This document shows, piece by piece, positions 28,340-44,228 of a DNA stretch of 64,000 nt. The DNA comes from Minisyncoccia bacterium (GTDB taxonomy: Bacteria; Patescibacteriota; Minisyncoccia; Phycocordibacterales; UBA918). Positions within the stretch are counted from its first letter, which is position 1. Each line of letters starts with the position of its first letter. Below the pieces are notes generated by a model. That model had not been told where the DNA came from and did not search any database. It was given only the letters and a program-made list of their open reading frames with translations. The stretch lies in assembly GCA_046293175.1 (NCBI GenBank), contig JBKBPM010000002.1, forward strand, positions 19,176 to 83,175. Direction: 5' to 3'. Position numbers and translations under genes: made by a program.

Positions 28340-28687
28340 TTATTTCTTCTTAGTAGCAGGTCCTGCTGATTTAGCGGCCTTGGCTGCTGCGATTTCGGCT
28401 TCCTTCTTCTTCTGTTCAAGTTCCTTCTGCATCTTACCTCCGTGACGATGGAACTTCTTCGTTGGTGAGAATTCACCAAGACGATGACCCACCATTTCTT
28501 CTGCAACAGTAACCGCAATGTGATCTTTCCCGTTGTGAACGCCGAAGGTGAAGCCAACCATTTCTGGCGAGATCATTGATGCTCGCGCCCAGGTCTTGAT
28601 TACACCACTCTCTCCGGGTTTCTTTCCGGCGATCTTTTTGAGGAGCTTTTCGTCTATGTATGGTCCTTTATATAATGATCTCGACAT
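28340..28687 (-). CDS. rpsS: 30S ribosomal protein S19
   Basis: From internal Met [15 protein letters not shown]; 4 extra upstream codons in ORF track probably not used. Confidence 0.9.
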
Positions 28688-29076
28688 ATTGAGATTCAAA
28701 CTCTGTTGCGGCGAATTTCTTTGTCGCTACAGTTTCGTGCGTCGTCACGGTACAAAAGTACCGCTCCTCGCCCTCAACTTAGGCTCCTCGAACTTCATCC
28801 ACACCAGACGTTTTCATAGTTAGAATTTGGTAATCCGCTTGCAGCTGTTTTCTCACGTACGAGAAAACCCGCGCAGTGGCGGTGCGATGAGAATCCCTCG
28901 TAAAGACAGGTAACGGCCGGCCTTAACAGGGATTCCCAACATCTTTCATCCCTTTGTTTTGACACTTCCTTGGTAACAGAACGTGCTGTTACCCGAGGTT
29001 GGAACGTGGCCAATACTACGTGAAATAAGGAAAAAAGTCAATCAAATGCTCTCCACCGAGTGCATCCGCATGTTGC

Positions 29077-29140
29077 TTGACATTAATAATTTATTAAATT
29101 ATTATTAAACTACTTCATTATTAATAATTTAAAACATATT
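29077..29140 (+). promoter_or_regulatory. vapB promoter (TTGACA-17-TATTAT) embedded in AT-rich inverted/direct repeats (putative antitoxin operator)
   Basis: ttaataattta / taaattattattaa inverted repeat and third attattaataattta copy between -35 and start codon. Confidence 0.5.
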
Positions 29141-29144
29141 TAGT

Positions 29145-29393
29145 ATGTATCAAACTAAAATAACCAGTCAAGGCACCATTTCTATCCCTGCCCCACTGCG
29201 CAAAAAATATGGTCTTATCCCAGGTGACACCGTAACTCTCGAGGACAACGGTAAAATCACCATTCAGAAAAGTCCCGACTTTGCCTCGGTGCGGGCTCAA
29301 AATGCTAAATACCTGGTTGGTAAAAAACCCTTTATTGCTAAAGGAGGTGATGGTTTTACCATGCATGTGTTAGAAAAATATGGCCAAAAATAA
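29145..29393 (+). CDS. vapB: AbrB/SpoVT (MazE/VapB-like) antitoxin
   Basis: SQGTISIPAPLRKKYGLIPGDTVTLE swapped-hairpin DNA-binding motif; overlaps downstream PIN gene by 14 nt. Confidence 0.7.
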   Translation: MYQTKITSQGTISIPAPLRKKYGLIPGDTVTLEDNGKITIQKSPDFASVRAQNAKYLVGKKPFIAKGGDGFTMHVLEKYGQK

Positions 29394-29784
29394 ATCCGGT
29401 TCGCTTGATACCAATATCTTGCTCCGCCTGATTGTAGGCGATGTTCCAGAGCAAACCGCTGTTATTGAAACTCTTTTGACCAAAGCGGCGGTGCTGCAAG
29501 TAGCCGATATTACCATCTTTGAGACTGTCTTTGTGTTACAAAGTTATTACAAATTTTCTCGGGAAGATATCTATGGGTCACTCACTGCAATTGTCCGTCA
29601 CCCTAAAATTAATTGTAACCGTCGGTTTTTTGAGCAAGCTTTTGCACTATATCGCCAGTACCCAAAACTCTCACTCGTAGACTGTGCTTTAACACTTTAT
29701 GCAGAACTGAACAATGCTTCGCCGTTATTCACCTTTGACAAAGATCTGGCCAAGTCATTAGCCAATACCCAAACATTGTCATGA
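29380..29784 (+). CDS. vapC: PIN-domain ribonuclease toxin
   Basis: LDTNILLRLIVGD (acidic residue 1), ITIFETVFVL, SLVDCALTLYAEL, FTFDKDL PIN signatures. Confidence 0.75.
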   Translation: MAKNKSGSLDTNILLRLIVGDVPEQTAVIETLLTKAAVLQVADITIFETVFVLQSYYKFSREDIYGSLTAIVRHPKINCNRRFFEQAFALYRQYPKLSLVDCALTLYAELNNASPLFTFDKDLAKSLANTQTLS

Positions 29785-30383
29785 TCACCCCTTCGCATCT
29801 CATTTATAGCTGGGCACTCGCCAAACAGACTGAAAAAGTGGCGGCGGGTGAACCAAACAAGTACCGCACGGCCGCCTTTGTTCTAGGCGCCCTGCTGCCA
29901 GATATTCCAGTCTATGTCTTCTTTTTGGTCTGTGGAATGCTGCTCGGCTATGGGCACGAACAACTCTGGGATGATATGTACTTTAATTCCGGCTGGTCGG
30001 TAGCCTTTACCCTCAGTCATTCCCTCCTCTTCTGGCCAAGCATCTACCTGGTAGCTAAGTACAAACGATGGTTTTTGGCGAAGTGGGTGGCTATTTCGGC
30101 CATTTTTCACATTGTGGTCGATTTTTGTGTGCATACGGCTGATGCCTACGCTCACTTTTGGCCGCTCACTGACTGGCGCTTTGTAAGCCCTATCTCCTAC
30201 TGGGACCGGGCGTTTTATGGACAATACGTAGGGTGTTTTGACGCCGCTTTGGTGCTTGGTCTCCTCTGCTGGCTCGCCACTCGCTACCGTGAGAGCAAGC
30301 AGCACTTTTTGATCTACGGACTTTTAGTTCTCGCTTTGGTACGTTTTGGACTCGAATGGTATAACCTCATCAAATATGCCTAA
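29781..30383 (+). CDS. hypothetical His-rich polytopic membrane protein (possibly YdjM/DUF457-like metal-dependent hydrolase)
   Basis: 200 aa, 5-6 TM helices, conserved-looking His/Asp in TM segments (FHIVVDFCVHTADAYAHFWPLTDW). Confidence 0.4.
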   Translation: MITPSHLIYSWALAKQTEKVAAGEPNKYRTAAFVLGALLPDIPVYVFFLVCGMLLGYGHEQLWDDMYFNSGWSVAFTLSHSLLFWPSIYLVAKYKRWFLAKWVAISAIFHIVVDFCVHTADAYAHFWPLTDWRFVSPISYWDRAFYGQYVGCFDAALVLGLLCWLATRYRESKQHFLIYGLLVLALVRFGLEWYNLIKYA

Positions 30384-30684
30384 ACCTCGCGGCAGCGAAC
30401 ATACCACCCTCACCGAAACGGCCGAGCTTCTCGTTCGGGAGCTCAAAAAGCAATCGGGTATCAAAATGATTGCACCAGGTATCATCGACGCTAAACGTTC
30501 AGGTAAGCGTTATATCACTGCAGTCTATACTTCGGCCGGTATTCACTTTATTGTCTCCGGGACCGGGGTGCAAAAAATTGCGGTGCACCTCTCCGATGCG
30601 GAAGATGGACCAAAGCTCGTGGCAACGCTGAAAAACGCAAAAGCCCTCAAGCAGTTTGCCTGGGGCGAGCGACACCGCGAATAA
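30376..30684 (+). CDS. hypothetical protein
   Basis: About 102 aa from ATG overlapping previous stop (ATGCCTAA); no motif recognised. Confidence 0.35.
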   Translation: MPKPRGSEHTTLTETAELLVRELKKQSGIKMIAPGIIDAKRSGKRYITAVYTSAGIHFIVSGTGVQKIAVHLSDAEDGPKLVATLKNAKALKQFAWGERHRE

Positions 30685-30691
30685 ATAGTGT

Positions 30692-31489
30692 CTAGAGCGT
30701 TTCTCGTGGTGGTTTTTTTGGTTGGAATTCTTCAGTGTGCGTTTTCCAGTCAATCACTGTATCATCTACAGGGTGAATTGGATCCTCTGATGCGATATGT
30801 CTAGGCACATCTCCAGCGTAGGGACTCTTAAAAATCTCATTTTTTGTGCTACTGGCACTGCCGTCCTTGACTGAGGCAATAATAGCCTCTTCTTTGGCCT
30901 TTTTATACATATCGAATTCTTTACTTGCGACAATTTCGGTACAAAGAGTGTCTACATCAACACTGGTGAAGGTCAGTGGAGTTAATACACGAATAGCATC
31001 TTTGATTTTTGCCAACACAGCCCTTGCATCTTGGTTGTTTGGATTTTCAATGTTGACAAGCGCCTCCATCAGTTTTGACTTCAAAAAATCATTACGTCCT
31101 AGCACCAACTTTAATTCTTCCAGTCGAGATTCTGGTTCTGCATTAAAATACTCAGCAACAGCTTTTTCCATGACCTCTACACCATACTCATCTCGAATTG
31201 CATCTTTTACATACGACAGCGCAATTATTTGTTCAGAAGTTAACTTTCCGTTTCGTTTCTGTGCGTCTCTGAGAACATTTAGAGTATTGAACATACTAAA
31301 ATTAGTTTGTTCAAGAGACTTTAATACATCTGCTGTCTGCGGTGCTTGTTCTGCTTTAGGTGTGATAAAGCGCTTTACAAAATTATCCAATGCCATAATG
31401 CCAATAGTATACCAGAAACCCAAGAGGGCAACACAAAACCACCCAATCAATGGGCGGTTTTGTGTTGCTTTGAGGCAAATGAGCAACAA
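30692..31489 (-). CDS. hypothetical N-terminally anchored protein, translationally coupled downstream of rplB
   Basis: 265 aa; start 3 nt after rplB stop; AT-richer than flanking ribosomal genes. Confidence 0.45.
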   Translation of the reverse strand: MLLICLKATQNRPLIGWFCVALLGFWYTIGIMALDNFVKRFITPKAEQAPQTADVLKSLEQTNFSMFNTLNVLRDAQKRNGKLTSEQIIALSYVKDAIRDEYGVEVMEKAVAEYFNAEPESRLEELKLVLGRNDFLKSKLMEALVNIENPNNQDARAVLAKIKDAIRVLTPLTFTSVDVDTLCTEIVASKEFDMYKKAKEEAIIASVKDGSASSTKNEIFKSPYAGDVPRHIASEDPIHPVDDTVIDWKTHTEEFQPKKPPRETL

Positions 31490-31491
31490 TC

Positions 31492-32352
31492 TTATGACTG
31501 TCCGCGCATCAAGCGTCCTGGCTTGCGGCGAGTGACAATAAACTTGTTACTAAACTTCTTTGGTGAGCGAGTCTTCTGACCCTTGCCCACTGGACGACCC
31601 TGCTTTGTGCGCGCACGACGGTGACCACGTGGACTGCGTCCCTCACCACCTCCGTGTGGGTGGTCTACCGCGTTCTTGGCTGAACCGCGAGTCTTTGGAC
31701 GAATACCGAGGTGACGAGCACGTCCAGCCTTTCCAATCTTCACGAGGCGGTATTCTTCGTTTGATACCGCACCAATCGATGCCCACGCTTGGCTTATAAT
31801 CTTACGCACTTCAGATGATGGCAACTTAACGAGGGTGTACCCAGCGTCTTGGGCCACGACTTCAGCGTAGTTACCAGCGGAACGAGCGATCCGAGCTCCA
31901 GCGCCAGGCTTGAGTTCAATGTTGAAGATAAAGGCACCAACCGGAATCTTCCCAAGCGGGAGACGGTTACCAGCCTTTGGCTTTGCCTCAGTAGAGGTAA
32001 TAATCTCGTCTCCAACCGCTACCTGCTGTGGAACGAGGATATACCGACGTTCACCGTCCTTGTAGAGAACCAGGGCAATAAAGCCTGAACGGTATGGGTC
32101 ATATTCAATGGTTTCAATCCGAGCTGGAACATCCTTCTTGTCGAACTTGAAGTCAACGAAACGATAGGTTCGCTTGTTTCCACCACCACGGTTGAGAGTG
32201 GTGGTACGACCGAGGTTGTTGCGGCCACCAGTACTGCGTCCACCCTTTGTCAACGACTTCAGTGGGTTACTCTTCGTACTTGTGAGCTTCTTTTTGTACT
32301 CAATCACAGTTCCATCGCGGCGACCGGCTGAGGTGGGTTTATATGCTTTCAT
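31492..32352 (-). CDS. rplB: 50S ribosomal protein L2
   Basis: 286 aa typical L2. Confidence 0.95.
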   Translation of the reverse strand: MKAYKPTSAGRRDGTVIEYKKKLTSTKSNPLKSLTKGGRSTGGRNNLGRTTTLNRGGGNKRTYRFVDFKFDKKDVPARIETIEYDPYRSGFIALVLYKDGERRYILVPQQVAVGDEIITSTEAKPKAGNRLPLGKIPVGAFIFNIELKPGAGARIARSAGNYAEVVAQDAGYTLVKLPSSEVRKIISQAWASIGAVSNEEYRLVKIGKAGRARHLGIRPKTRGSAKNAVDHPHGGGEGRSPRGHRRARTKQGRPVGKGQKTRSPKKFSNKFIVTRRKPGRLMRGQS

Positions 32353-33503: not shown

Positions 33504-34130
33504 TTACTTAACACTTCCACGTACTTCGACTAATGTACCCGGACGACCTGGAATTGCACCCTTCACGAGGATGAGATTCTCTGCGGGATTTACCTGGAGA
33601 ACAGTGAGGTTCTTCACCGTGATACGATCCCCCCCCATACGCCCAGCCATGCGCAGACCCTTGATTACACGCTTGAAACCGGTAGCACCGATGGATCCTG
33701 GTTCACGTTCTGAGTGCTTCTGACCGTGACTACGACGTCCACCGCCGAAGCCGTGTCGCTTTACCACACCCTGGAAGCCCTTACCTTTTGATACAGCACT
33801 GACGGTAACAATGTCACCTGGAGCGAAGACTGAGGCGTTAATAGTAGCGCCTACGGTCATGTCACCTGGTACTGTTTCACCGTACGATGATTTTGGACGG
33901 AACTCACGCACAACTGCGGCGCCGGCAAACTGGCCCTGCTGTGCCTTCGCAATCCGGTGACTCTTTTGAGAGCCGGTAGCGAGCTGTACAGCATCATAGC
34001 CATCTACGGCAGCAGTCTTGACCTTGGTAATTGTCGCTGTTTCTACCCTAAGGATAGTGGCTGGGTGACAAACACCGTTTGCGTCAAAAACTTGTGTCAT
34101 GCGGTCTTTGGTTCCAACAATAAACTTCAT
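33504..34130 (-). CDS. rplC: 50S ribosomal protein L3
   Basis: 208 aa typical L3. Confidence 0.9.
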   Translation of the reverse strand: MKFIVGTKDRMTQVFDANGVCHPATILRVETATITKVKTAAVDGYDAVQLATGSQKSHRIAKAQQGQFAGAAVVREFRPKSSYGETVPGDMTVGATINASVFAPGDIVTVSAVSKGKGFQGVVKRHGFGGGRRSHGQKHSEREPGSIGATGFKRVIKGLRMAGRMGGDRITVKNLTVLQVNPAENLILVKGAIPGRPGTLVEVRGSVK

Positions 34131-34374
34131 TTATTCTGGACTTATGCTTATAACATAGCCTTTAAAAACCTCAATGACAAACCGCGCTCTTTTATGGGCG
34201 CGAGCACAAGCTCGCTGCATAAAATAAGCGCGGTTTGTGCCCATTGGTTCTCCGGTACTTACTATATTTCGGTACCTTCAGCGAACATAGGTCTTATAAA
34301 GCTAAGGAGAGTATACCAGAGACGGCTAGTTTTGCAACTAGCCGTCTCTTTACGCTGCTTATGTACTGCCAACC

Positions 34375-35049
34375 TTAGCAATCACTACCGCTACCGCGCC
34401 GTGAACACGCTCCGCCATCTGTGGTTGGCTTTGGTGCCGTACAGTTACTATCAGACACAATCGAGCCGTACTGATCACGACATTCTACCGTACGGACATT
34501 TCTTCCGTTGGTTGTGCTACATGAAGGTGGCCACGGCGCGTTACAAGCATAGGCGCCGGTTACCCACCCATAGACCGGGGTTGAACATTCGGCTAATACA
34601 ACGGTGTGATATTGGTACGTACGTCCAACTGAAGCACAGACATTAGCGGCACTTCCAGTCATTGGTCGGATATACGTACTGTTATCATTTCCATCCCCAC
34701 TCCAGTTCCAGTTACAGGTTACGGCCCAAGCTGGTTCAAAGCATTTTCCCCCAACAATAATTGGGTCATCACCTCCACCCCCTCCTGGTGCACCAGTTGA
34801 TGGATCCCAACAGTTGGCGCCGAGTTCGTCACAATAACGTGGGGACCAGGTTGAGGTAGCAGCCGCCACTATATTAGCCATAAAGTTACCGGTCTTTGCT
34901 TGGGTGGTAGCACCAACATTTATTGGCGCAGGAGTATTATCATTTGGTGCAGTGGCGGTGGGTGCAGACCACTGGGCAGACATGAAGTTGTAGCTTACAA
35001 AAAGAAGGGCAACAAGGCTAAAGATGGCTAAGGAGCGATATTGTTTCAT
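34375..35049 (-). CDS. secreted Cys-rich protein, cassette-family paralog A
   Basis: Signal peptide MKQYRSLAIFSLVALLFVS; conserved N-module ...WDPSTGAPGGGGG; 12-Cys variable C-terminus. Confidence 0.55.
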   Translation of the reverse strand: MKQYRSLAIFSLVALLFVSYNFMSAQWSAPTATAPNDNTPAPINVGATTQAKTGNFMANIVAAATSTWSPRYCDELGANCWDPSTGAPGGGGGDDPIIVGGKCFEPAWAVTCNWNWSGDGNDNSTYIRPMTGSAANVCASVGRTYQYHTVVLAECSTPVYGWVTGAYACNAPWPPSCSTTNGRNVRTVECRDQYGSIVSDSNCTAPKPTTDGGACSRRGSGSDC

Positions 35050-35140
35050 ATAGGAGTATTATAACACACACGCCTACTTAGTTATCTGTAAAATTGGGGA
35101 CAGTATACCAGGAAACTACGTTTGTGTAACTCTTTGTCAC

Positions 35141-36001
35141 TTATGAGCAAGACCGAGTACTACCGAAGGTAACTCCAGTTGGCAATACACAACCAAGACT
35201 AAAACCAGACCCAGCACCAGTTGCCCCAGTGGCTGTCCCGTATGAAGCACATGCGCTAAAATCCCAACTAGCTGGCACATTGAATGAATCCCGCCAATTA
35301 CCAGAAAGTGCAACCGAGCAGAATTTCAGGTCCTGGGCTGCGGTTGATCCACCCGAATTACAGGCTGAGGTACTACCAAACGTCACACCAGTATCGGTCA
35401 AACAACCCATTTGTCGTCCTACTGCGCCGGTTGTTGTCTGAAAACTGGCACACTGAGCATCTCCAAAGCTTGCTGGCACGAGAATAGTATCGCGCCAGTT
35501 CCCAGAAGCAGCAACTACTGAACAAAACTTTCGTGATGGCATCGGTTCTGCAACCGCCCCATCACAGGCGGTATCGTCGTTCTCATAAAATTTATCACCA
35601 GCAATGCAGCCAAAAGCATAGCTCGTCGCACCTACAGCAGTCATAAAGCTCTGGCAGGTAGTGCTGGTCCAAGACCCAGGAACTACAATCGTATCGCGCC
35701 AATTACCACTTACGAGTACTGAACAAATCTTGTACACCAAGCCGTTACCGTTAGCAGCGGTACAATTATTCCCGAGAGCATCACAGTAGCGGTTTGAGCG
35801 CATCTCCGTTGTGGCGGCCAAGATATTGGCGGCCAAGTTGCCATTCTTAGCCTGAGTGGTTGTACCAACATTTATTGGCGCAGGAGTATTATCATTTGGT
35901 GCAGTGGCGGTGGGTGCAGACCACTGGGCAGACATGAAGTTGTAGCTTACAAAAAGAAGGGCAACAAGGCTAAAGATGGCTAAGGAGCGATATTGTTTCA
36001 T
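35141..36001 (-). CDS. secreted Cys-rich protein, cassette-family paralog B (three internal about 68-aa 4-Cys repeats)
   Basis: First about 47 codons and 13 nt of 5'UTR identical at DNA level to paralog A; repeats SGNWRDxIxVPxS...GVTFGSTSxC. Confidence 0.55.
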   Translation of the reverse strand: MKQYRSLAIFSLVALLFVSYNFMSAQWSAPTATAPNDNTPAPINVGTTTQAKNGNLAANILAATTEMRSNRYCDALGNNCTAANGNGLVYKICSVLVSGNWRDTIVVPGSWTSTTCQSFMTAVGATSYAFGCIAGDKFYENDDTACDGAVAEPMPSRKFCSVVAASGNWRDTILVPASFGDAQCASFQTTTGAVGRQMGCLTDTGVTFGSTSACNSGGSTAAQDLKFCSVALSGNWRDSFNVPASWDFSACASYGTATGATGAGSGFSLGCVLPTGVTFGSTRSCS

Positions 36002-36105
36002 ATAGGAGTATTATGACAGAAAAAGCAGTAGCACGTTGTTGTTATACACAAAAACGCCTGAGAGGCGCTTTTGTACAACATTTGAGACGATTCCTGGACG
36101 TATGC

Positions 36106-37302
36106 TTAGCGGCGCAGTAACCAGCCTGCATCTGCCGCGGTAACCGGCCAAGTGTACGTGGGCTGCATATTGCTATACATACACTCGGTGAGTAAATCGG
36201 CACCTACAAATTTGGTTTTGCGCAGCGTGTAGGCAATGACCGGCGCATGAGCGTCACCAGTTACCGACTTCAGTGCATTACAATCACCTTTTTCGAGTGC
36301 CATTGGCGGCAATTGGGATTTGAGAGCCGTGATTGCTCTTGTGAAAGTTGGTGTAGTGGCCGTTTGACCAAAAGCGGTTGGCCAGAGTTGTGCCATTATG
36401 TCCGGGTACCAAGTCTTCATATTTGAATGACCAAACACCCCAGCACCATCTTTATAGATTGCATACTGGGTAGTACTGGCGTTATAAAAGCTGCCAGATG
36501 AACCACCGTAAAGCGCTGTTTTTAATACAGCGGCGCGATCAGATAATTGTTTGGCCCGAGCAGTGTCACTAAATATTTGTTTTTCAATACGGGCAGCCGC
36601 TTCAAGTCCAGCCAAGACCTCCACATTGTCCATCAGGTATTTGATAGGGTAGGTCTTTTTGGCCCAACTGACTCCGTCTACATCTATGAGTGCCGTCAGA
36701 GTGTCCTCCACATTTCTGATTGCTGATTTATTACTCCGAACAAAGGACTTACTCCCACCCGCTGTAATGTAGCGATCCACAACAACGAGAAAGAGAGCTG
36801 CTGAACTGTCCTCTGCGTCAACAGTATTACACTGTCGTTCATCACTTTTCACGGGACAGGTAGTACTATATGCACCATCAAGCGAGTACCAGGTATCAAG
36901 CGGTACCCCTGCTGTGGCATCAATATGGCGGGTATACCACTGTATCCAACGCTGGGCCATGGTGACACTCCCTGATTGACCAGCATCAAGCACACCGAGA
37001 ACTGCTAGGTGGGAAAAATATGGAGTTACTCGACGTAGTGGAGTCTCGGTCCCTTCTTCATACACTGCCACTCCATCGCTTACCGTAATTGCACCAAAGC
37101 TACTCTGGCGACTATTCGTGTATTGGAGCTTTTTAATCCAACCGACTACATTTTGTGTCTGTGTTTTAGATAGCGTGGCAGTGGCTGCTTGCTCGTCGCC
37201 GCTACCGAGCGTCAGCGCTACGACATTTCTATCAGTGGCTACATATATACCTGCACCAATGAGTGTAAGTCCCAGTATTAATAATATAATTTTTTTTCGC
37301 AT
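36106..37302 (-). CDS. hypothetical secreted protein
   Basis: 398 aa, N-terminal signal/TM, no recognised motif. Confidence 0.45.
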   Translation of the reverse strand: MRKKIILLILGLTLIGAGIYVATDRNVVALTLGSGDEQAATATLSKTQTQNVVGWIKKLQYTNSRQSSFGAITVSDGVAVYEEGTETPLRRVTPYFSHLAVLGVLDAGQSGSVTMAQRWIQWYTRHIDATAGVPLDTWYSLDGAYSTTCPVKSDERQCNTVDAEDSSAALFLVVVDRYITAGGSKSFVRSNKSAIRNVEDTLTALIDVDGVSWAKKTYPIKYLMDNVEVLAGLEAAARIEKQIFSDTARAKQLSDRAAVLKTALYGGSSGSFYNASTTQYAIYKDGAGVFGHSNMKTWYPDIMAQLWPTAFGQTATTPTFTRAITALKSQLPPMALEKGDCNALKSVTGDAHAPVIAYTLRKTKFVGADLLTECMYSNMQPTYTWPVTAADAGWLLRR

Positions 37303-37381
37303 AGTAACTATACTGTAGCATACGTACTAACATTGCTTCGCGGTAAATTTAAACACAGCACCTGCCGGCGCTGTGTTTCTC

Positions 37382-37973
37382 TTATGGTGCGCGCAATTCA
37401 CGGACTACATAGTGACCATTACCAGAATTAGTGGTCAGGGTACCAAATCTATAATAATGTCCTGGCGAAATAATAATGGTTGAACCGTTATCAAGATCAC
37501 TGTCATAGTCTTGGTAGTTCATTCTCACTGAGGTGGTAGTTGAAACACCCACATCGATAATCGTACCGTCCCAAATATTCTTATGGAAAACCATAATTGG
37601 CTGATCAGTATTATTTTGGTACCAAACACCCTGGGTACGGTTAACCACTTGCCACGTTTGATTATAACCAATACCACCCCCCGCCCGGCGCGCCAGTACT
37701 TGGATCCCAACAATTATTCCCGGTCTCATCGCAGTACTGTGGAGACCAGGCGGAGGTAGCGGCCGCCACTATATTAGCCATAAAGTTACCGGTTTTGGCT
37801 TGGGTGGTAGCACCAACATTTATTGGCGTAGGAGTATTATCATTTGGTGCAGTGGCGGTGGGTGCAGACCACTGGGCAGACATGAAGTTGTAGCCGGTAA
37901 GAAGGCTTGGGCAGATAACTAACGGGATAAAAGCAAGGGTTTCTTCATATGTAGTCATTCTATTAAGAGACAC
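37382..37973 (-). pseudogene. cassette-family paralog C; reading frame broken at a C6-G-C3 homopolymer (37677-37686); N-terminal signal region replaced
   Basis: ORFs 37662..37973 and 37382..37729 overlap; DNA 37762-37896 about 98% identical to paralog A 34862-34996. Confidence 0.45.
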
Positions 37974-38046
37974 TGCTGCGTAGAAGAGATGCTGGGTATA
38001 ACAAAAGCGCCTTTTAGGCGCTTTTGTTATACATGTGCCATGCTCC

Positions 38047-38379
38047 TTAGAGCATCTTCACATCAATATTGACTCCGGAAGGGAGTGAGAGGTTCGTAAG
38101 AGCCTCTACTACCTTTGGTCCTGGGTTCAAGATATCAATCACTCGCTTATGCATTCGCATTTCGAATTGTTCTCGCGCGTCTTTGTACACGAACGTCGAA
38201 CGGTTGACTGTATATTTCTTGATCTCGGTGGGGAGTGGGATTGGTCCAACTACCTTGGCATCGAAACGCAAGGCAGTATCAATGATCTGCTTGACTGAAG
38301 CATCAAGAATCTTATGCTCATACGCGCGAACGCGGATGCGCAACTTGTTGAAGGCTTCGGCTTTCTGAGTTGTTGCCAT
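38047..38379 (-). CDS. rpsJ: 30S ribosomal protein S10
   Basis: 110 aa typical S10. Confidence 0.9.
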   Translation of the reverse strand: MATTQKAEAFNKLRIRVRAYEHKILDASVKQIIDTALRFDAKVVGPIPLPTEIKKYTVNRSTFVYKDAREQFEMRMHKRVIDILNPGPKVVEALTNLSLPSGVNIDVKML

Positions 38380-38531: not shown

Positions 38532-39725
38532 TTACTTGATGATCTTAGTTACAACACCAGCACCAACAGTCTTTCCACCTTCGCGGATAGCAAAGTTAGT
38601 CTGCTCTTCCATCGCTACTGGAGCGACGAGCTTGACCTTAAACTTAGCAGTATCTCCTGGCATAACCATTTCAACTCCCTCGCTGAGAGTTACCTCACCA
38701 GTAACGTCAGTGGTACGAATGTAGAACTGTGGCTTGTAACCAGTAAAGAATGGTGTGTGACGACCTCCTTCATCCTTCGAGAGTACGTATACTTCGGCTT
38801 CAAATTCTGTGTGTGGAGTCACTGAGCCCTTCTTCGCAAGTACCTGTCCACGGTGGATGTCTTCCTTCTTCACACCACGAAGAAGAATACCAGCGTTGTC
38901 TCCGGCCTGAGCCTGATCAAGCTGCTTGTTGAACATTTCAACTCCAGTCACCGTAGTAGTGGTAGTATCCTTGATACCAACGATTTCTACTTCTTCACCA
39001 ACCTTCACCGCACCACGTTCTACACGACCGGTTACTACCGTACCGCGTCCTTCAATTGAGAAGATATCTTCAATTGGCATAAGGAACGGCTTATCGAGCT
39101 GACGTTCTGGTAGTGGGAAGTATGAGTCCATCGCATCAACGAGTTCGATGATCTTGTCACCCCACTTACTCATTGGATCATTGAGAGCCTGGAGGCCTGA
39201 ACCGTGGATGATTGGAGCGTTCGCACCATCAAATCCGTTGTGGGTGAGGAGTTCACGGAGTTCTTCTTCCACGAGCATGAGCATTTCTTCGTCGTCAACC
39301 ATATCGCACTTGTTGAGGAATACGATGATGTTTGGCACACCCACTTGCTTTGCGAGGAGTACATGTTCACGAGTCTGTGGCATCGCACCGTCGGTAGCTG
39401 CTACTACGAGCACAGCGCCGTCCATCTGGGCTGCACCAGTAATCATGTTCTTGATGTAGTCAGCGTGACCAGGCGCGTCGATGTGCGCATAGTGACGATT
39501 TGGAGTCTCATACTCACTGTGTGAGAGAGAAATAGTAATACCACGAGCTTTTTCTTCTGGAGCCTTGTCGATTTCATCAACACCCTTAGTGGTAGCATCG
39601 TAGCCATTTCCACGAGCGTGGAGAGTGCTAAGAATTGCAGCAGTAAGCGTAGTCTTTCCGTGGTCAACGTGACCAATGGTACCTACGTTTACGTGCGGCT
39701 TTGTGCGGTCAAATGAACCTGCCAT
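38532..39725 (-). CDS. tuf: elongation factor Tu
   Basis: 397 aa; [14 protein letters not shown]-like motifs. Confidence 0.95.
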
Positions 39726-39976: not shown

Positions 39977-40303
39977 TTAACGAAGCGCTTCTAAAATGGC
40001 TGTTCGGTCTGACTCTGAAGCACTCGGGGCAGCTTCGAGGGCTTTCACTACCGCTTCGGTATCTTCTGTTGTTGCTATAGGTGCGACCTCAAGTGCCTTC
40101 AAAATTTCAGCCTGATTTGCGTTTGTTGGGGCTTCAGCCACGGGCATTTCTGGGGTTGAAGTTGATTTTGCTGCTAGTCTCATGCCGTAATAAATATAAG
40201 CAGCCAAAATACCAACCAACATGAACACAAGCCCAATAGTTATAATCGTACGCAAATACTTGGCTTCGCGTGGGTTGATGGAAATTGGTTGTTCAGGATT
40301 CAT
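39977..40303 (-). CDS. hypothetical small membrane-anchored protein
   Basis: 108 aa with one TM helix and Ala/Glu-rich tail. Confidence 0.35.
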   Translation of the reverse strand: MNPEQPISINPREAKYLRTIITIGLVFMLVGILAAYIYYGMRLAAKSTSTPEMPVAEAPTNANQAEILKALEVAPIATTEDTEAVVKALEAAPSASESDRTAILEALR

Positions 40304-40314
40304 ACTTTTTTGTA

Positions 40315-41436
40315 TTATACTTCCACAGCTACTGGTATAACCTCAATACTCAATCGTTCTTCGACAGTGCCATACGCACCCGTACAGGTCATACGTACAG
40401 TGGCAGTATTCATAATTGGACCAGTCTGTACAGAGCCACTGACCGCACCAACCGCTAAATTGGTAATACCAGGACCGTTAATTACACAAGTATTCCCAAT
40501 GAGTGATGATAGACTCCAGGTCACGGTAGCGGTGTTACCACGCCGTACTATTGGTGGAATGGCATTGAGATCCATTGTTGGACTAGTAGTACCAGTGCCG
40601 AGTATACAAATACCGCCACTAGGTATTAGACCAGCTGCACAGGTGGCACTGAGGGTAACCGCATCGAGCATGGTAGTACCACTACGAGCATGGAAGGTGG
40701 TATTACCAAGACCGATGGTTACACCAAAGTTTGTTTGTGTGTGGTTCGTACTCAATTGACTGGCCGGAGCCGTTACCCGATATATATTTGGTGAGGCTAC
40801 ACTGTTATCAATATCCCAATTAAGCTGGGTAACACAGGTACTTGCGTTCTGTGCTACCATACAGTTATTACCCCAGATAGTGGCGCTTGTGGTGGCGAAA
40901 GTAACGTGTGAAAACATATCAATCCAACCAACCACCTCACTTCCCCAAGCGTATGAATCTGCGTTCATACCGGTTGCCATATTTGATGTGATGGCATGAT
41001 TGGTGCCGCGCAGTGAAATCCAACCATCCCAAGCACCAGCTTCAGGATTGTTACTCATAGTACTGCAGGTACCACCAAGTGTCCCCGCACATGCCCTGGC
41101 CCAGCCACTCCAAGTGAGGTTTGGATATGTACCGGTCAAGCGAGCATTTTCTGCTGCCGTACCGCCACCGGTTGGGAAACCAGCAAGACCGCCAAACTTG
41201 ATCCAGCCAATATTACTACTCCAACCCCAGCCGGTGATAGTCCGGTCGGCGTTAATGGTTACTTTGTAGTCACTTGAGGCACAGTTACTATCATTACGAC
41301 AGTTGAGTGAAATCCATCCGATATTACTGCTCCAGGCAAAGCCATCGAGATCAATCGGAGCTGGAAGTGTCTGGGCATGAGCAAAGGCCGCTCCAACAAA
41401 TAGCATAGCGAGTAAAAACAACTGGTACAGTTTCAT
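40315..41436 (-). CDS. secreted repeat protein (SSNIGWI / GW-type repeats)
   Basis: Signal peptide; repeated WSSNIGWISL, WSSNIGWIKF, WDGWISL, VGWIDMF motifs. Confidence 0.45.
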   Translation of the reverse strand: MKLYQLFLLAMLFVGAAFAHAQTLPAPIDLDGFAWSSNIGWISLNCRNDSNCASSDYKVTINADRTITGWGWSSNIGWIKFGGLAGFPTGGGTAAENARLTGTYPNLTWSGWARACAGTLGGTCSTMSNNPEAGAWDGWISLRGTNHAITSNMATGMNADSYAWGSEVVGWIDMFSHVTFATTSATIWGNNCMVAQNASTCVTQLNWDIDNSVASPNIYRVTAPASQLSTNHTQTNFGVTIGLGNTTFHARSGTTMLDAVTLSATCAAGLIPSGGICILGTGTTSPTMDLNAIPPIVRRGNTATVTWSLSSLIGNTCVINGPGITNLAVGAVSGSVQTGPIMNTATVRMTCTGAYGTVEERLSIEVIPVAVEV

Positions 41437-42056: not shown

Positions 42057-44228
42057 TTATGCTTCCTCCACTATATCTTTGACACCTCTCGACTTCTTGA
42101 TTTCCATTGCCACGTTTGGTGGGACGACATCATAGTGATCGAAAGTCATGGTCATACTAGCGCGACCTTGAGTCATCGAACGGAGAGTGTTTGTGTAACC
42201 AAACATTTCAGAGAGTGGTACTTGGGCGGTAATCACCTTCTTATCACCAAGATCGGTCATTCCCTCTACCTGACCACGCTTACTCGAGATATTTCCGTTA
42301 ACGTCACCCATGAACTGCTCTGGAGTACGCACTTCAACCTTCATTACTGGTTCAAGGAGCACAGCACCGGCCTTCGCTGCTGCTTCCTTAAAGGCGTAAA
42401 TAGCCGCAAGCTTAAAAGCAATTTCACTTGAGTCTACTTCATGGAATGATCCATCATAGAGCTCCACAGTCACGTCTTCCATCTTGTAACCGGCCACAAA
42501 ACCACGTGCCATCGCTTCACGACAACCCTTCATAACAGCTGGGATAAATTCACCTGGGATCGCCCCTCCTTTGATACTGTTCACAAACTCAAAGTGATCT
42601 TCACGAGTGACATTCTTGGGCACTTCCTTCCCTTCTTCAAGTGGTTGCATTGGGCGAATCTTAATCTTGACGTGTCCGTACTGTCCACGACCACCAGATT
42701 GCTTTGCGTACTTGTAGTCTGCTTCAGCTTCGTGTTGAATCGTTTCTCGATAGGCTACCTGAGGAGCACCAACGTTAGCTTCTACACCAAATTCACGCTT
42801 CATACGGTCAACGAGAATTTCTAGGTGAAGCTCACCCATACCCTGAATAATCGTCTGCATGGTTTCTTCGTCAGTAGAAACGATGAAGGTTGGATCCTCG
42901 TCAGAGAGCTTCTTGAGTGCAGTACTCATCTTCTCCTGGTCATTTTTGGTCTTCGGTTCGACACTCATTGCGACCACTGGTGCTGGGAACACAATTTGTT
43001 CAAGAATGATTGGATTCTGCTCATCACAAAGTGTATGTGATGTCTTTACATCTTTGAGTCCTACGCCAGCCGCAATTTCGCCTGCGTATACTTCTTCGAT
43101 TTCTGTACGTTTATCGGCCTGGAGTCGCACGATACGACCAAGACGTTCTTTCTGACCAGTTGTCGCATTGTAGATATAGCTACCAGCTTTTACCACACCT
43201 GAGTACACACGGAAGAAAGTGAGCTGCCCCACAAATGGGTCAGTCTGTAGCTTAAACGCAAGCGCGCAGAATGGTTCTTCATCTGAAGCAGTGCGAGTGA
43301 TTTCCGCTTCGGTATCTGGATTTGTACCCTTAACTGCTTCGAGGTCAGTTGGTGCGGGAAGATAATCAACTACACCGTCAAGTACGAGCTGGACGCCAAT
43401 GTTTTTCAAAGCTGAACCAGTGAACACGGGGAAAATTTCGTTAGCAATCACCGCTTTACGGAGAGTGGCTTTGATTTGTTCATTCGTTGGCAATTCTCCA
43501 TTAAGATAGGCCTCCATCAAGGCATCATCATGCTCTACAACACGCTCAATGAGCTCGGCGCGGTACATTTCTGCATCATCCTTAAGCTCGGTCGGAATCT
43601 CATGCTCCACAATTTTAGTACCCATTTCTCCTTCGAAGGTATATGCCTTCATGCGGATAAGATCTACAACACCTTTGAAGTGTTCTTCCGCACCCCAGGG
43701 AAGTTGTACTCGTACGGCCTTCTTTGAAAGTCGGTCAAGAATACTGGCATATGACTTCTCAAATGATGCACCCATACGGTCCATCTTGTTGATGAAACAG
43801 AGACGAGGCACTTTCGCTTCGTCGGCGTAACCCCAGTTGGTTTCAGACTGTGGTTCTACTCCAGCTACTGAGTCAAATACGACGACAGCACCATCAAGTA
43901 CACGCATTGAACGCTTTACTTCAGCGGTGAAATCGATGTGACCGGGTGTGTCGATAATGTTAAAGGTGTACATCTGTGACTTGTCTTTACGATCAGTCAC
44001 ATCTGATTTTGACCAGTTACAAGAAATCGCGGCCGCGGTAATGGTGATACCACGTTCACGTTCCTGTTCCATCCAGTCGGTTACCGTCGCACCATCATGC
44101 ACTTCACCAATCTTATGTGACATACCGGTATAGAAAAGCACGCGCTCTGAGGTAGTAGTTTTACCAGCATCAACGTGCGCAACAATACCGAAGTTACGCA
44201 TTCTATTAATAGGAAATTCTCGGGCCAT
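42057..44228 (-). CDS. fusA: elongation factor G
   Basis: 723 aa; [10 protein letters not shown]-domain. Confidence 0.95.

Follow-up and report, generated by a model that had tools for sequence, protein, structure and literature searches.

INTRODUCTION

In the mosaic tail fibres and receptor-binding proteins of phages, a conserved N-terminal part carries exchangeable C-terminal binding domains, with breakpoints at the junction between the two. A comparable arrangement at the DNA level is found in bacterial surface-protein families with gene-converted 5' ends, such as the vlp/vsp lipoproteins of Mycoplasma, bab/hop of Helicobacter and opa of Neisseria, where identity extends over a short 5' flank, the signal peptide and the first mature part while the bodies diverge, and where tandem arrays show concerted evolution within genomes. 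Other variable loci lie between core genes, as do the pneumococcal cps locus (dexB-aliA) and the O-antigen loci, in which a fixed site between highly conserved genes holds very different gene content among relatives. Here we describe an island of four genes, named C, D, B and A, between the ribosomal protein genes rpsJ and rplC in a 64,000-nt stretch of DNA (hereafter the window) from a metagenome-assembled genome (MAG) of Paceibacteria (Patescibacteria), a tiny genome. Genes A, B and C share an N-terminal module (N-module) that precedes different C-terminal domains. We assign a probability of about 60% to the reading that the island is a lineage-specific, recombination-prone locus of Sec-exported, binding-type (adhesin- or tail-fibre-tip-like) proteins, occupying a fixed rpsJ-rplC site in one clade of Paceibacteria.

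Each of these described systems matches the locus in part. Like tail fibres, the island combines a conserved N-terminal part with exchangeable C-terminal domains and breakpoints at the junction; members of its N-module family carry Collar, Gp53-like_C and Peptidase_S74 domains, and the C-terminal domain of gene C (the C-type domain) matches the C-termini of phage PHROGs without an assigned function, weakly (E=3e-6). Unlike tail fibres, its members are cellular genes with Sec signal peptides at a fixed S10-operon site flanked by rpsJ, rplC, tuf and fusA, without nearby phage genes, relatives on viral contigs or a detectable phage homologue of the conserved N-terminal part. The likeness to vlp/vsp, bab/hop and opa covers the identical 5' flank, signal peptide and first mature part, the diverging bodies, the tandem arrangement and the concerted evolution. 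In contrast to those families, the island has no lipobox, outer-membrane barrel, phase-variable promoter tract or invertase, its variable parts are unrelated folded domains rather than one repeat type, and its host is an uncultured Patescibacterium. It resembles the cps and O-antigen loci in its fixed position and variable content, but holds cassettes for adhesin-like proteins instead of polysaccharide synthesis, and exchange by way of the flanks is something we infer here.

RESULTS

Modular architecture of the island

The initial annotation had proposed that the island splits the rpsJ-rplC junction, and the two flanking genes, both identified by Pfam, do lie 3,916 nt apart. On the minus strand the order is rpsJ - C - D - B - A - rplC, with the following features:

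38047..38379, minus strand: rpsJ (ribosomal protein S10), upstream boundary of the island (Pfam Ribosomal_S10, E=3.9e-32)
37382..37973, minus strand: gene C, N-module plus a Cys-free, beta-rich C-type domain, disrupted; canonical ATG at 37946-37948
36106..37302, minus strand: gene D, 398 aa, N-terminal transmembrane (TM) helix plus a predicted (alpha/alpha)6-barrel, six-hairpin glycosidase-like
35141..36001, minus strand: gene B, 286 aa, N-module plus three 67-68-aa repeats (35144-35737)
34375..35049, minus strand: gene A, 224 aa, N-module, Gly linker and Cys-rich beta domain with a terminal TSP1-like repeat (~34378-34578)
33504..34130, minus strand: rplC (ribosomal protein L3), downstream boundary of the island (Pfam Ribosomal_L3)
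35864..36014, minus strand: 151-nt exact repeat, B copy (13 nt of 5' flank plus codons 1-46)
34912..35062, minus strand: 151-nt exact repeat, A copy
37762..37894, minus strand: tract in C near-identical to A 34862-34994 (3 mismatches)

The genes are built from a signal peptide, a handle of ~55 aa, a Gly-rich linker and an interchangeable C-terminal domain. The leader has a positively charged n-region, a hydrophobic helix and an xSA/QW boundary, and is thus Sec-type; the signal peptide ends in (Y)NFMSAQW and the handle follows the pattern W..P...PP..N...P.NVG...Q.K.G ... YCD..G.NC. The layout of a conserved handle with a variable C-terminal module, which had been noticed from the window's open reading frames (ORFs), is therefore real, and the reported C-terminal types agree with our counts: A has 12 Cys (2 of them inside the N-module), each of the three 67-68-aa repeats of B has 4, and the C-terminal part of C has none. 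The N-module occurs in all three genes, with no further copy within the window, and A and B are intact minus-strand ORFs. The description of 37382..37973 as a single gene does not stand, since its range contains an ORF at 37662-37973 that overlaps another, at 37382-37729, in a different frame.

Shared 5' DNA and its breakpoints

A and B are identical at 151 of 151 nt (34912-35062 and 35864-36014, offset 952), from 13 nt 5' of the ATG to codon 46; past this tract identity drops steeply within a few dozen bases, to ~25% beyond the module. The initial annotation gave essentially this extent (13 nt upstream to about codon 47), but its coordinates (34911-35053 versus 35875-36017) were mis-registered by 12 nt, and these ranges compared literally are only 26% identical. 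Between A and C (offset 2900) there are three mismatches over 34862-34994, with weaker similarity out to ~34778; a tract with three mismatches had been reported correctly, although the range quoted for it (37762-37896/34862-34996) contains five. An 83-nt core (A 34912-34994) is common to all three copies, with one C-specific difference only. The result is a mosaic of three segments: over the 5' 68 nt A and B are the same and C differs, over the following 83 nt the three copies are alike, and over a further ~50 nt C closely resembles A, with B as the divergent copy. When we applied the kind of breakpoint analysis that had been proposed for these copies, the single-breakpoint maximum chi-square was significant for each pair (permutation p<=5e-4).

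In comparisons between genomes, the DNA of orthologous N-modules has a mean identity of 58-77% by segment (85% for the best pair), with the proteins much more alike. The 100% identity of A and B, set against these values, therefore reflects recency, not constraint. We also compared 40 non-identical N-modules from 14 loci and found the nearest DNA neighbor of the signal segment in the same genome for 17 of the 40, versus 2.5 expected (p<=2e-4), and that of the handle segments for 9-10 of the 40 (p<=0.003). This concerted evolution is visible as genome-specific signatures, such as ...LVLCMSLLTG in 3 of 3 paralogues of relative L001 and ...LVGFHSLSASW in all paralogues of L094 and L097. With sharp, significant breakpoints and same-genome clustering of N-modules across about 12 assemblies, the mosaic identity is attributable to recombination of paralogous 5' modules, as had been suggested.

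Whole modules have been swapped as well. For example, the final 133 aa of the family members P0005 and P0009 match completely (100% identity), against ~50% identity over the N-terminal 93 aa, with the switch inside the Gly linker. The close relative L091/L093, whose D is 97.7% identical to that of the window, shares with it a collinear stretch that comprises C, D, the spacer and the N-module of B (87.6% DNA identity), and past this N-module runs straight into an A-type C-terminus and then rplC. The two arrangements differ by one unit of 'B C-terminus + spacer + N-module' of ~950 nt, a difference that unequal crossover between tandem N-modules, or an insertion between them, would be expected to produce. 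Judged from these sequences, recombination at module boundaries is well supported.

The disrupted gene C

Compared with four intact orthologues of 188-189 aa, C has a 1-nt deletion directly after the canonical ATG, and its G-rich linker near 37680-37685 is short by 2-5 nt. The N-module is therefore out of frame with both the canonical ATG and the C-terminal domain, which agree in frame with each other, as the two indels (37941-37948 and 37680-37685) mutually compensate for a net change of -3 or -6 nt. A shared GGGGGTGG string where the A-C homology tract ends contains the 3' lesion, which may be a scar of recombination, a product of mutational decay or an error of sequencing; C as a whole is either a pseudogene or the carrier of two homopolymer sequencing errors. 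We rate a phase-variation switch at the G6 run of C as unlikely, given the shortness of the tract and the presence of a second lesion.

C had been thought to have a replaced signal region, but its signal is of the ordinary C type (MKNTLTLIPLVVCFSLLTG in orthologues) and the conversion tract stops before it. C-type genes in relatives carry another handle sequence, and the handle type of the window's C is found on the A-type protein P0010 and on a truncated gene after D in L008; this distribution indicates that the A-C tract was copied from A to C.

A variable hot-spot in related genomes

N-module genes lie between rpsJ and rplC in at least 12 related independent assemblies, a conserved location at which content and order differ:

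Window: C-D-B-A
L001: 184-149-188-A
L004: 198 only; A-type genes in the rplB-rpsS gap
L005/L090: 260-191-C-D; A after rplB
L007: D-260-C-155-A
L008: 192-S74-372-C-D-...
L094: four different genes (Gp53-like_C, Collar and two others)
L097, L100, L110, L112/113 and L091/L093: islands as well

To place these islands, we scanned the gap in species-representative genomes with RplC. Close relatives have rpsJ-rplC gaps of 0.9-4.3 kb with N-module genes, some other Paceibacteria and Kaiserbacteria have gaps of 0.7-4 kb with unrelated genes, and the non-Patescibacteria scanned have 8-370 nt. The rplB-rpsS gap behaves similarly. The insertion is thus not peculiar to the window's genome; it belongs to a conserved variable hot-spot in the clade, at a gap commonly enlarged in Paceibacteria.

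One member of another lineage, the more distantly related Paceibacteria genome L012 (Candidatus Nomurabacteria MAG JACKGI010000003.1, 1709-4518), has a complete diversity-generating retroelement (DGR) in the rpsJ-rplC gap, consisting of a Fib_succ_major/Lcl_C target, bAvd and an RVT_1 reverse transcriptase (RT). The island resembles the DGRs of CPR bacteria in that a binding protein is diversified, and L012 places one in the same gap; unlike them, the window's island has no RT, Avd or template repeat, and exchanges whole domains in place of mutagenic retrohoming.

In several relatives, contigs start or end in or beside N-modules (L008:9952-10150; L002:1-33; the ends of L009; L003). This suggests that N-module repeats routinely fragment short-read assemblies at the ribosomal operon.

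The N-module family and its partner domains

We built a profile of the N-module from the mature end of the signal and the handle (61 positions, with invariant W, N, Q, G, YC, G and C). At a cutoff of E<=1e-3 it matches 5,196 clusters (50%-identity representatives), and at E<=1e-10 it matches 520; the proteins concerned range from 68 to 4,739 aa in length. Neither Pfam nor NCBIfam has a model for it, and all first-search homologues with a named source come from MAGs of Patescibacteria/Paceibacteria. We found no literature on this module, on this island or on TSP1 domains in Patescibacteria.

In a Pfam census of 128 N-module members, a partner domain was recognizable in just 20:

TSP1_ADAMTS: 6
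Peptidase_S74: 3
H_lectin: 3
PCSK9_C3: 3
Gp53-like_C: 2
Lcl_C: 2
phage tail Collar: 1

All 20 are of binding, adhesin or tail-fibre-tip types, and no toxin domain occurs in the census. In the relatives' islands themselves, we found genes with Collar (89 bits, E=1.9e-25), Gp53-like_C (40 bits, E=5.8e-10) and Peptidase_S74. We set aside as unproven a tail-fibre origin of the handle, suggested by the PHROG alignment of a Peptidase_S74 paralogue that begins at residue 30-43, because A and B share the handle and have no PHROG match.

Two kinds of family members extend the pattern. P0036-type genes of 260 aa (L007:5004-5786 and L005:641-1423) join an N-module, a C-type beta domain and TSP1, indicating that C-terminal domains recombine among themselves. 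In the giant proteins P0084, P0089, P0090 and P0119 (1,481-4,739 aa), the profile matches in 6-11 separate stretches, mostly with its ...YCD..G.NC end, so that a portion of the module serves as a repeat unit in surface proteins of very large size in Patescibacteria.

For gene A, PF19030 (TSP1_ADAMTS) is matched by 16 of 25 A-type orthologues and not by the window's own A. Its AF2 model has a well-predicted beta-rich C-terminal half (pLDDT ~80-90), and the best fold match in a structure search is the TSP1 didomain of THSD7A, a weak one. The repeat domain of B is very rare, with 4 protein clusters found by a word-index search of a 5.8-billion-protein collection, and all of those with readable flanks lie between rpsJ and rplC.

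Gene D

D is the best-conserved island gene (85-98% amino acid identity in relatives) and models as a membrane-anchored (alpha/alpha)6 glycosidase-like protein. The AF2 model (pLDDT 80.8, pTM 0.82) shows the (alpha/alpha)6 barrel confidently, and Foldseek against PDB gives the GH15-like dextran dextrinase 9ju0 (E=9e-7), along with MmpH, glucoamylase, GH78, GH125 and GH76 (probability 1.00, TM 0.5-0.6). D has no match in Pfam or NCBIfam, no significant one in PHROGs, none at the sequence level to any GH family, and no useful match to PDB sequences by single-sequence or profile search. In the alignment, D162, D165 and E228 are invariant and D225 nearly so.

Genomic setting

The B and D proteins are identical to NCBI ACK4SL_03710 and ACK4SL_03715, respectively, of a 'Candidatus Paceibacteria bacterium' MAG. 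The region's genes are on the minus strand, except two in the rplB-rpsS gap:

42057-44228, minus strand: fusA, then two conserved ORFs without a family match, before tuf
38532-39725, minus strand: tuf
after rplC, minus strand: rplD, rplW and rplB (rplB 31492-32352)
28340-28699, minus strand: rpsS, beyond a second non-ribosomal gap

With a GC content (0.43-0.51) like that of the flanks, the island is not foreign DNA of recent acquisition. A second interruption, of ~2.8 kb (window 28700-31491), separates rplB from rpsS; it holds a 265-aa ORF without assigned function on the minus strand (30692-31489), and its opposite strand encodes a PIN-domain protein (29380-29784) and a YdjM-like membrane protein (29781-30383). 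The relatives L004, L005 and L006 have an A-type gene in this gap instead of beside rplC. Between fusA and tuf (window 39977-41436) are two ORFs, neither with a family match: one of 373 aa with a signal-like N-terminus (40315-41436) and one of 108 aa with a TM helix (39977-40303). This pair recurs with unchanged lengths in L001, L004, L007 and L008, indicating that the str-operon junction is interrupted in the clade too.

Putative expression signals

Within the island we located four candidate elements:

37996..38037, minus strand: perfect 17-bp hairpin (AAAAGCGCCT...AGGCGCTTTT) followed by TGTTATAC in the rpsJ-C interval; putative terminator and -10-like element
36048..36084, minus strand: hairpin, T-run and TGTATAAC in the D-B interval; terminator/promoter-like
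35102..35130, minus strand: promoter-like site GTTACA-17-TATACT with TG, upstream of A (consensus match only)
34310..34337, minus strand: promoter-like site TTGCAA-16-TATACT with TG, ~180 nt upstream of rplC (consensus match only)

The element at 36048-36084 is 78% identical to 38001-38037 (paralogous), and its palindromic hairpin gives a terminator-like call on the plus strand. Behind each of the two hairpins come a T-run and a TGnTATA(A/C)-like element. The two promoter-like sites have a TGGTATACT motif in common. Scans for sigma-70 sites and terminators returned fewer sites than in shuffled controls, so these assignments are only suggestions from repeated motifs and hairpins. They suggest that rplC may be transcribed independently, and are only suggestive of separate transcription units rather than one S10 operon. 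A TATAAT-/CATAAT-like hexamer lies 8 nt 5' of the ATGs of A and B (35050-35065 and 36002-36017), within or beside the 13 nt that the two genes share, and D has TATAGT 4 nt ahead of its ATG (37303-37325); the Shine-Dalgarno motif is absent upstream (ACTCCTAT). Hexamers near the ATGs without a Shine-Dalgarno may reflect leaderless or very short-leader mRNAs.

DISCUSSION

If the island is a recombination-prone locus of exported binding proteins, the N-module DNA conserved among tandem paralogues would serve as portable homology. Homologous recombination in the N-module and at the G-rich linker would homogenize the 5' ends by gene conversion, duplicate or delete units by unequal crossover, and re-pair handles with different C-terminal domains; the 151-nt identity of A and B and the A-to-C tract would be recent events of this kind. 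The proteins might be displayed on, or released from, the cell to mediate attachment to a host cell or substrate, with the handle tethering or presenting the binding domain and the glycosidase-like D perhaps acting on the same surface. Flanking by near-invariant ribosomal genes may aid exchange of islands between strains, and may ensure strong expression. We infer the role in attachment from the types of partner domains, the glycosidase-like neighbor and the epibiont lifestyle of cultivated Patescibacteria: these are mostly Saccharibacteria and grow as epibionts on host cells (PMC10633639).

Several observations weigh against this interpretation. The C-terminal domains of A, B and C have no significant Pfam or NCBIfam family, so that the binding-type families come mostly from relatives and not from the window's proteins, and the handle is predicted with a pLDDT below 50 in the monomer AF2 model. 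A and B have no PHROG match and a single-protein scan of viral contigs found no relatives, so a relationship of the handle to tail fibres is not established. The two N-module copies of A and B are taken from the MAG assembly; an exact 29-mer from the shared core was not found in a metagenome contig collection, which gave no independent same-strain assembly to compare. The same-genome similarity of N-modules could also be due in part to recent lineage-specific duplication, not conversion.

This last point leads to the simplest alternative, an ordinary tandem family in which a secreted-protein gene was duplicated locally, recombination has no adaptive role and the S10-operon site is without significance. 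Recent local duplication agrees with the arrays whose signal peptides are specific to a genome (L094, L097 and the trio of L001), and enlarged rpsJ-rplC and rplB-rpsS gaps with unrelated genes are common in Paceibacteria. However, duplication alone can neither join one N-module to unrelated C-terminal domains nor place two N-modules before an identical C-terminal domain, as in P0005 and P0009; the A/B/C mosaic requires at least two separate exchanges, and the site has been reused in at least 12 assemblies with differing contents, leaving this account rather unlikely. An assembly artefact, through collapsed or misjoined repeats or strain mixture, is suggested by the MAG source, by a 151-nt repeat of about one short-read length, by relatives' contigs that break at N-modules and by indels in C that fall in short homopolymer contexts. 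Yet assemblers collapse repeats rather than create two copies, the copies here are separated by unique sequence (the C-terminus of B and the 91-nt B-A spacer), and tandem N-module arrays appear in many independent assemblies. The identity also begins only 13 nt before the ATG, from which no k-mer path would be expected to fuse alleles, and we regard an artefact as very improbable.

Two further explanations give the variable C-termini a programmed or toxic function. In antigenic or phase variation, cassettes would be converted into an expressed gene, with the frameshifted C as a silent donor or its G tract as a switch, and near-identical tracts with sharp ends, the loss of frame in C at a G6 run exactly at the module junction and the frequent breaks of relatives' contigs at N-modules (fitting repeats or heterogeneity) are all compatible with this. 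The anatomy is a poor fit: A and B are both complete and each has a start codon and a promoter-like site, unlike the promoterless partial cassettes of silent-cassette systems (pilE/pilS, vlsE, MgPa), so there is no single expression site and only C is defective. Moreover, it is the conserved segment and not the variable one that is homogenized, G6 is short for slipped-strand switching, C has a second lesion at its start and the window's island has no recombinase, invertase or RT, the absence of recombinase and RT having been noted already in the initial annotation. Programmed antigenic variation is thus unproven, and we consider it distinctly improbable. The resemblance to polymorphic toxins (Rhs, CdiA and MafB), which the initial annotation had drawn, extends only to the general layout, in which variable toxins at the C-terminus would be carried by a conserved trafficking handle at the N-terminus, with recombination at the junction. 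A, B and C have no toxin match in Pfam, NCBIfam or PHROGs, just as the 128-member census has none, and the partners recognized there are lectin-, adhesin- or fibre-tip-like. In the intervals that follow A, B and C (79-243 nt, with hairpins and promoter-like sites) there is no same-strand ORF of at least 50 aa, in agreement with the earlier remark that no immunity-like genes are obvious. The proteins are also far smaller than those toxins (150-400 aa), have plain Sec-type leaders and have no secretion-system domains or, in the island, secretion-system genes. The toxin reading is left with hardly any credibility.

Surface-protein genes whose 5' ends evolve in concert, modularity of the tail-fibre kind and variable loci with conserved neighbors are known principles. 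New here are the very large, undescribed family of N-terminal modules, the role of this module in Paceibacteria as a recombination handle to which unrelated binding domains are joined, and the fixed position inside the S10 ribosomal operon at a site that another lineage uses for a DGR. The N-module family, at present unannotated, could be defined as a new domain. The rpsJ-rplC junction is usually taken as invariant for ribosomal-protein phylogenies and synteny checks and is a variable hot-spot here, and N-module repeats appear to break relatives' assemblies at this point; both matter for quality control of MAGs.

More tentatively, the S10-operon gaps (rpsJ/rplC and rplB/rpsS) of Paceibacteria might be dedicated sites for fast-evolving host- or surface-recognition genes, served by at least two unrelated diversification mechanisms (handle-domain shuffling, and the DGR in L012). 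If so, the handle family, with its more than 5,000 clusters, would be a general display module for the attachment proteins of episymbionts, and host range would be determined by the cassettes present. Outside Saccharibacteria, little is known of how Patescibacteria, mostly uncultured and with reduced genomes, recognize a host or substrate and attach to it, and this locus offers candidates: small exported proteins with interchangeable binding domains, and a partner glycosidase-like protein.

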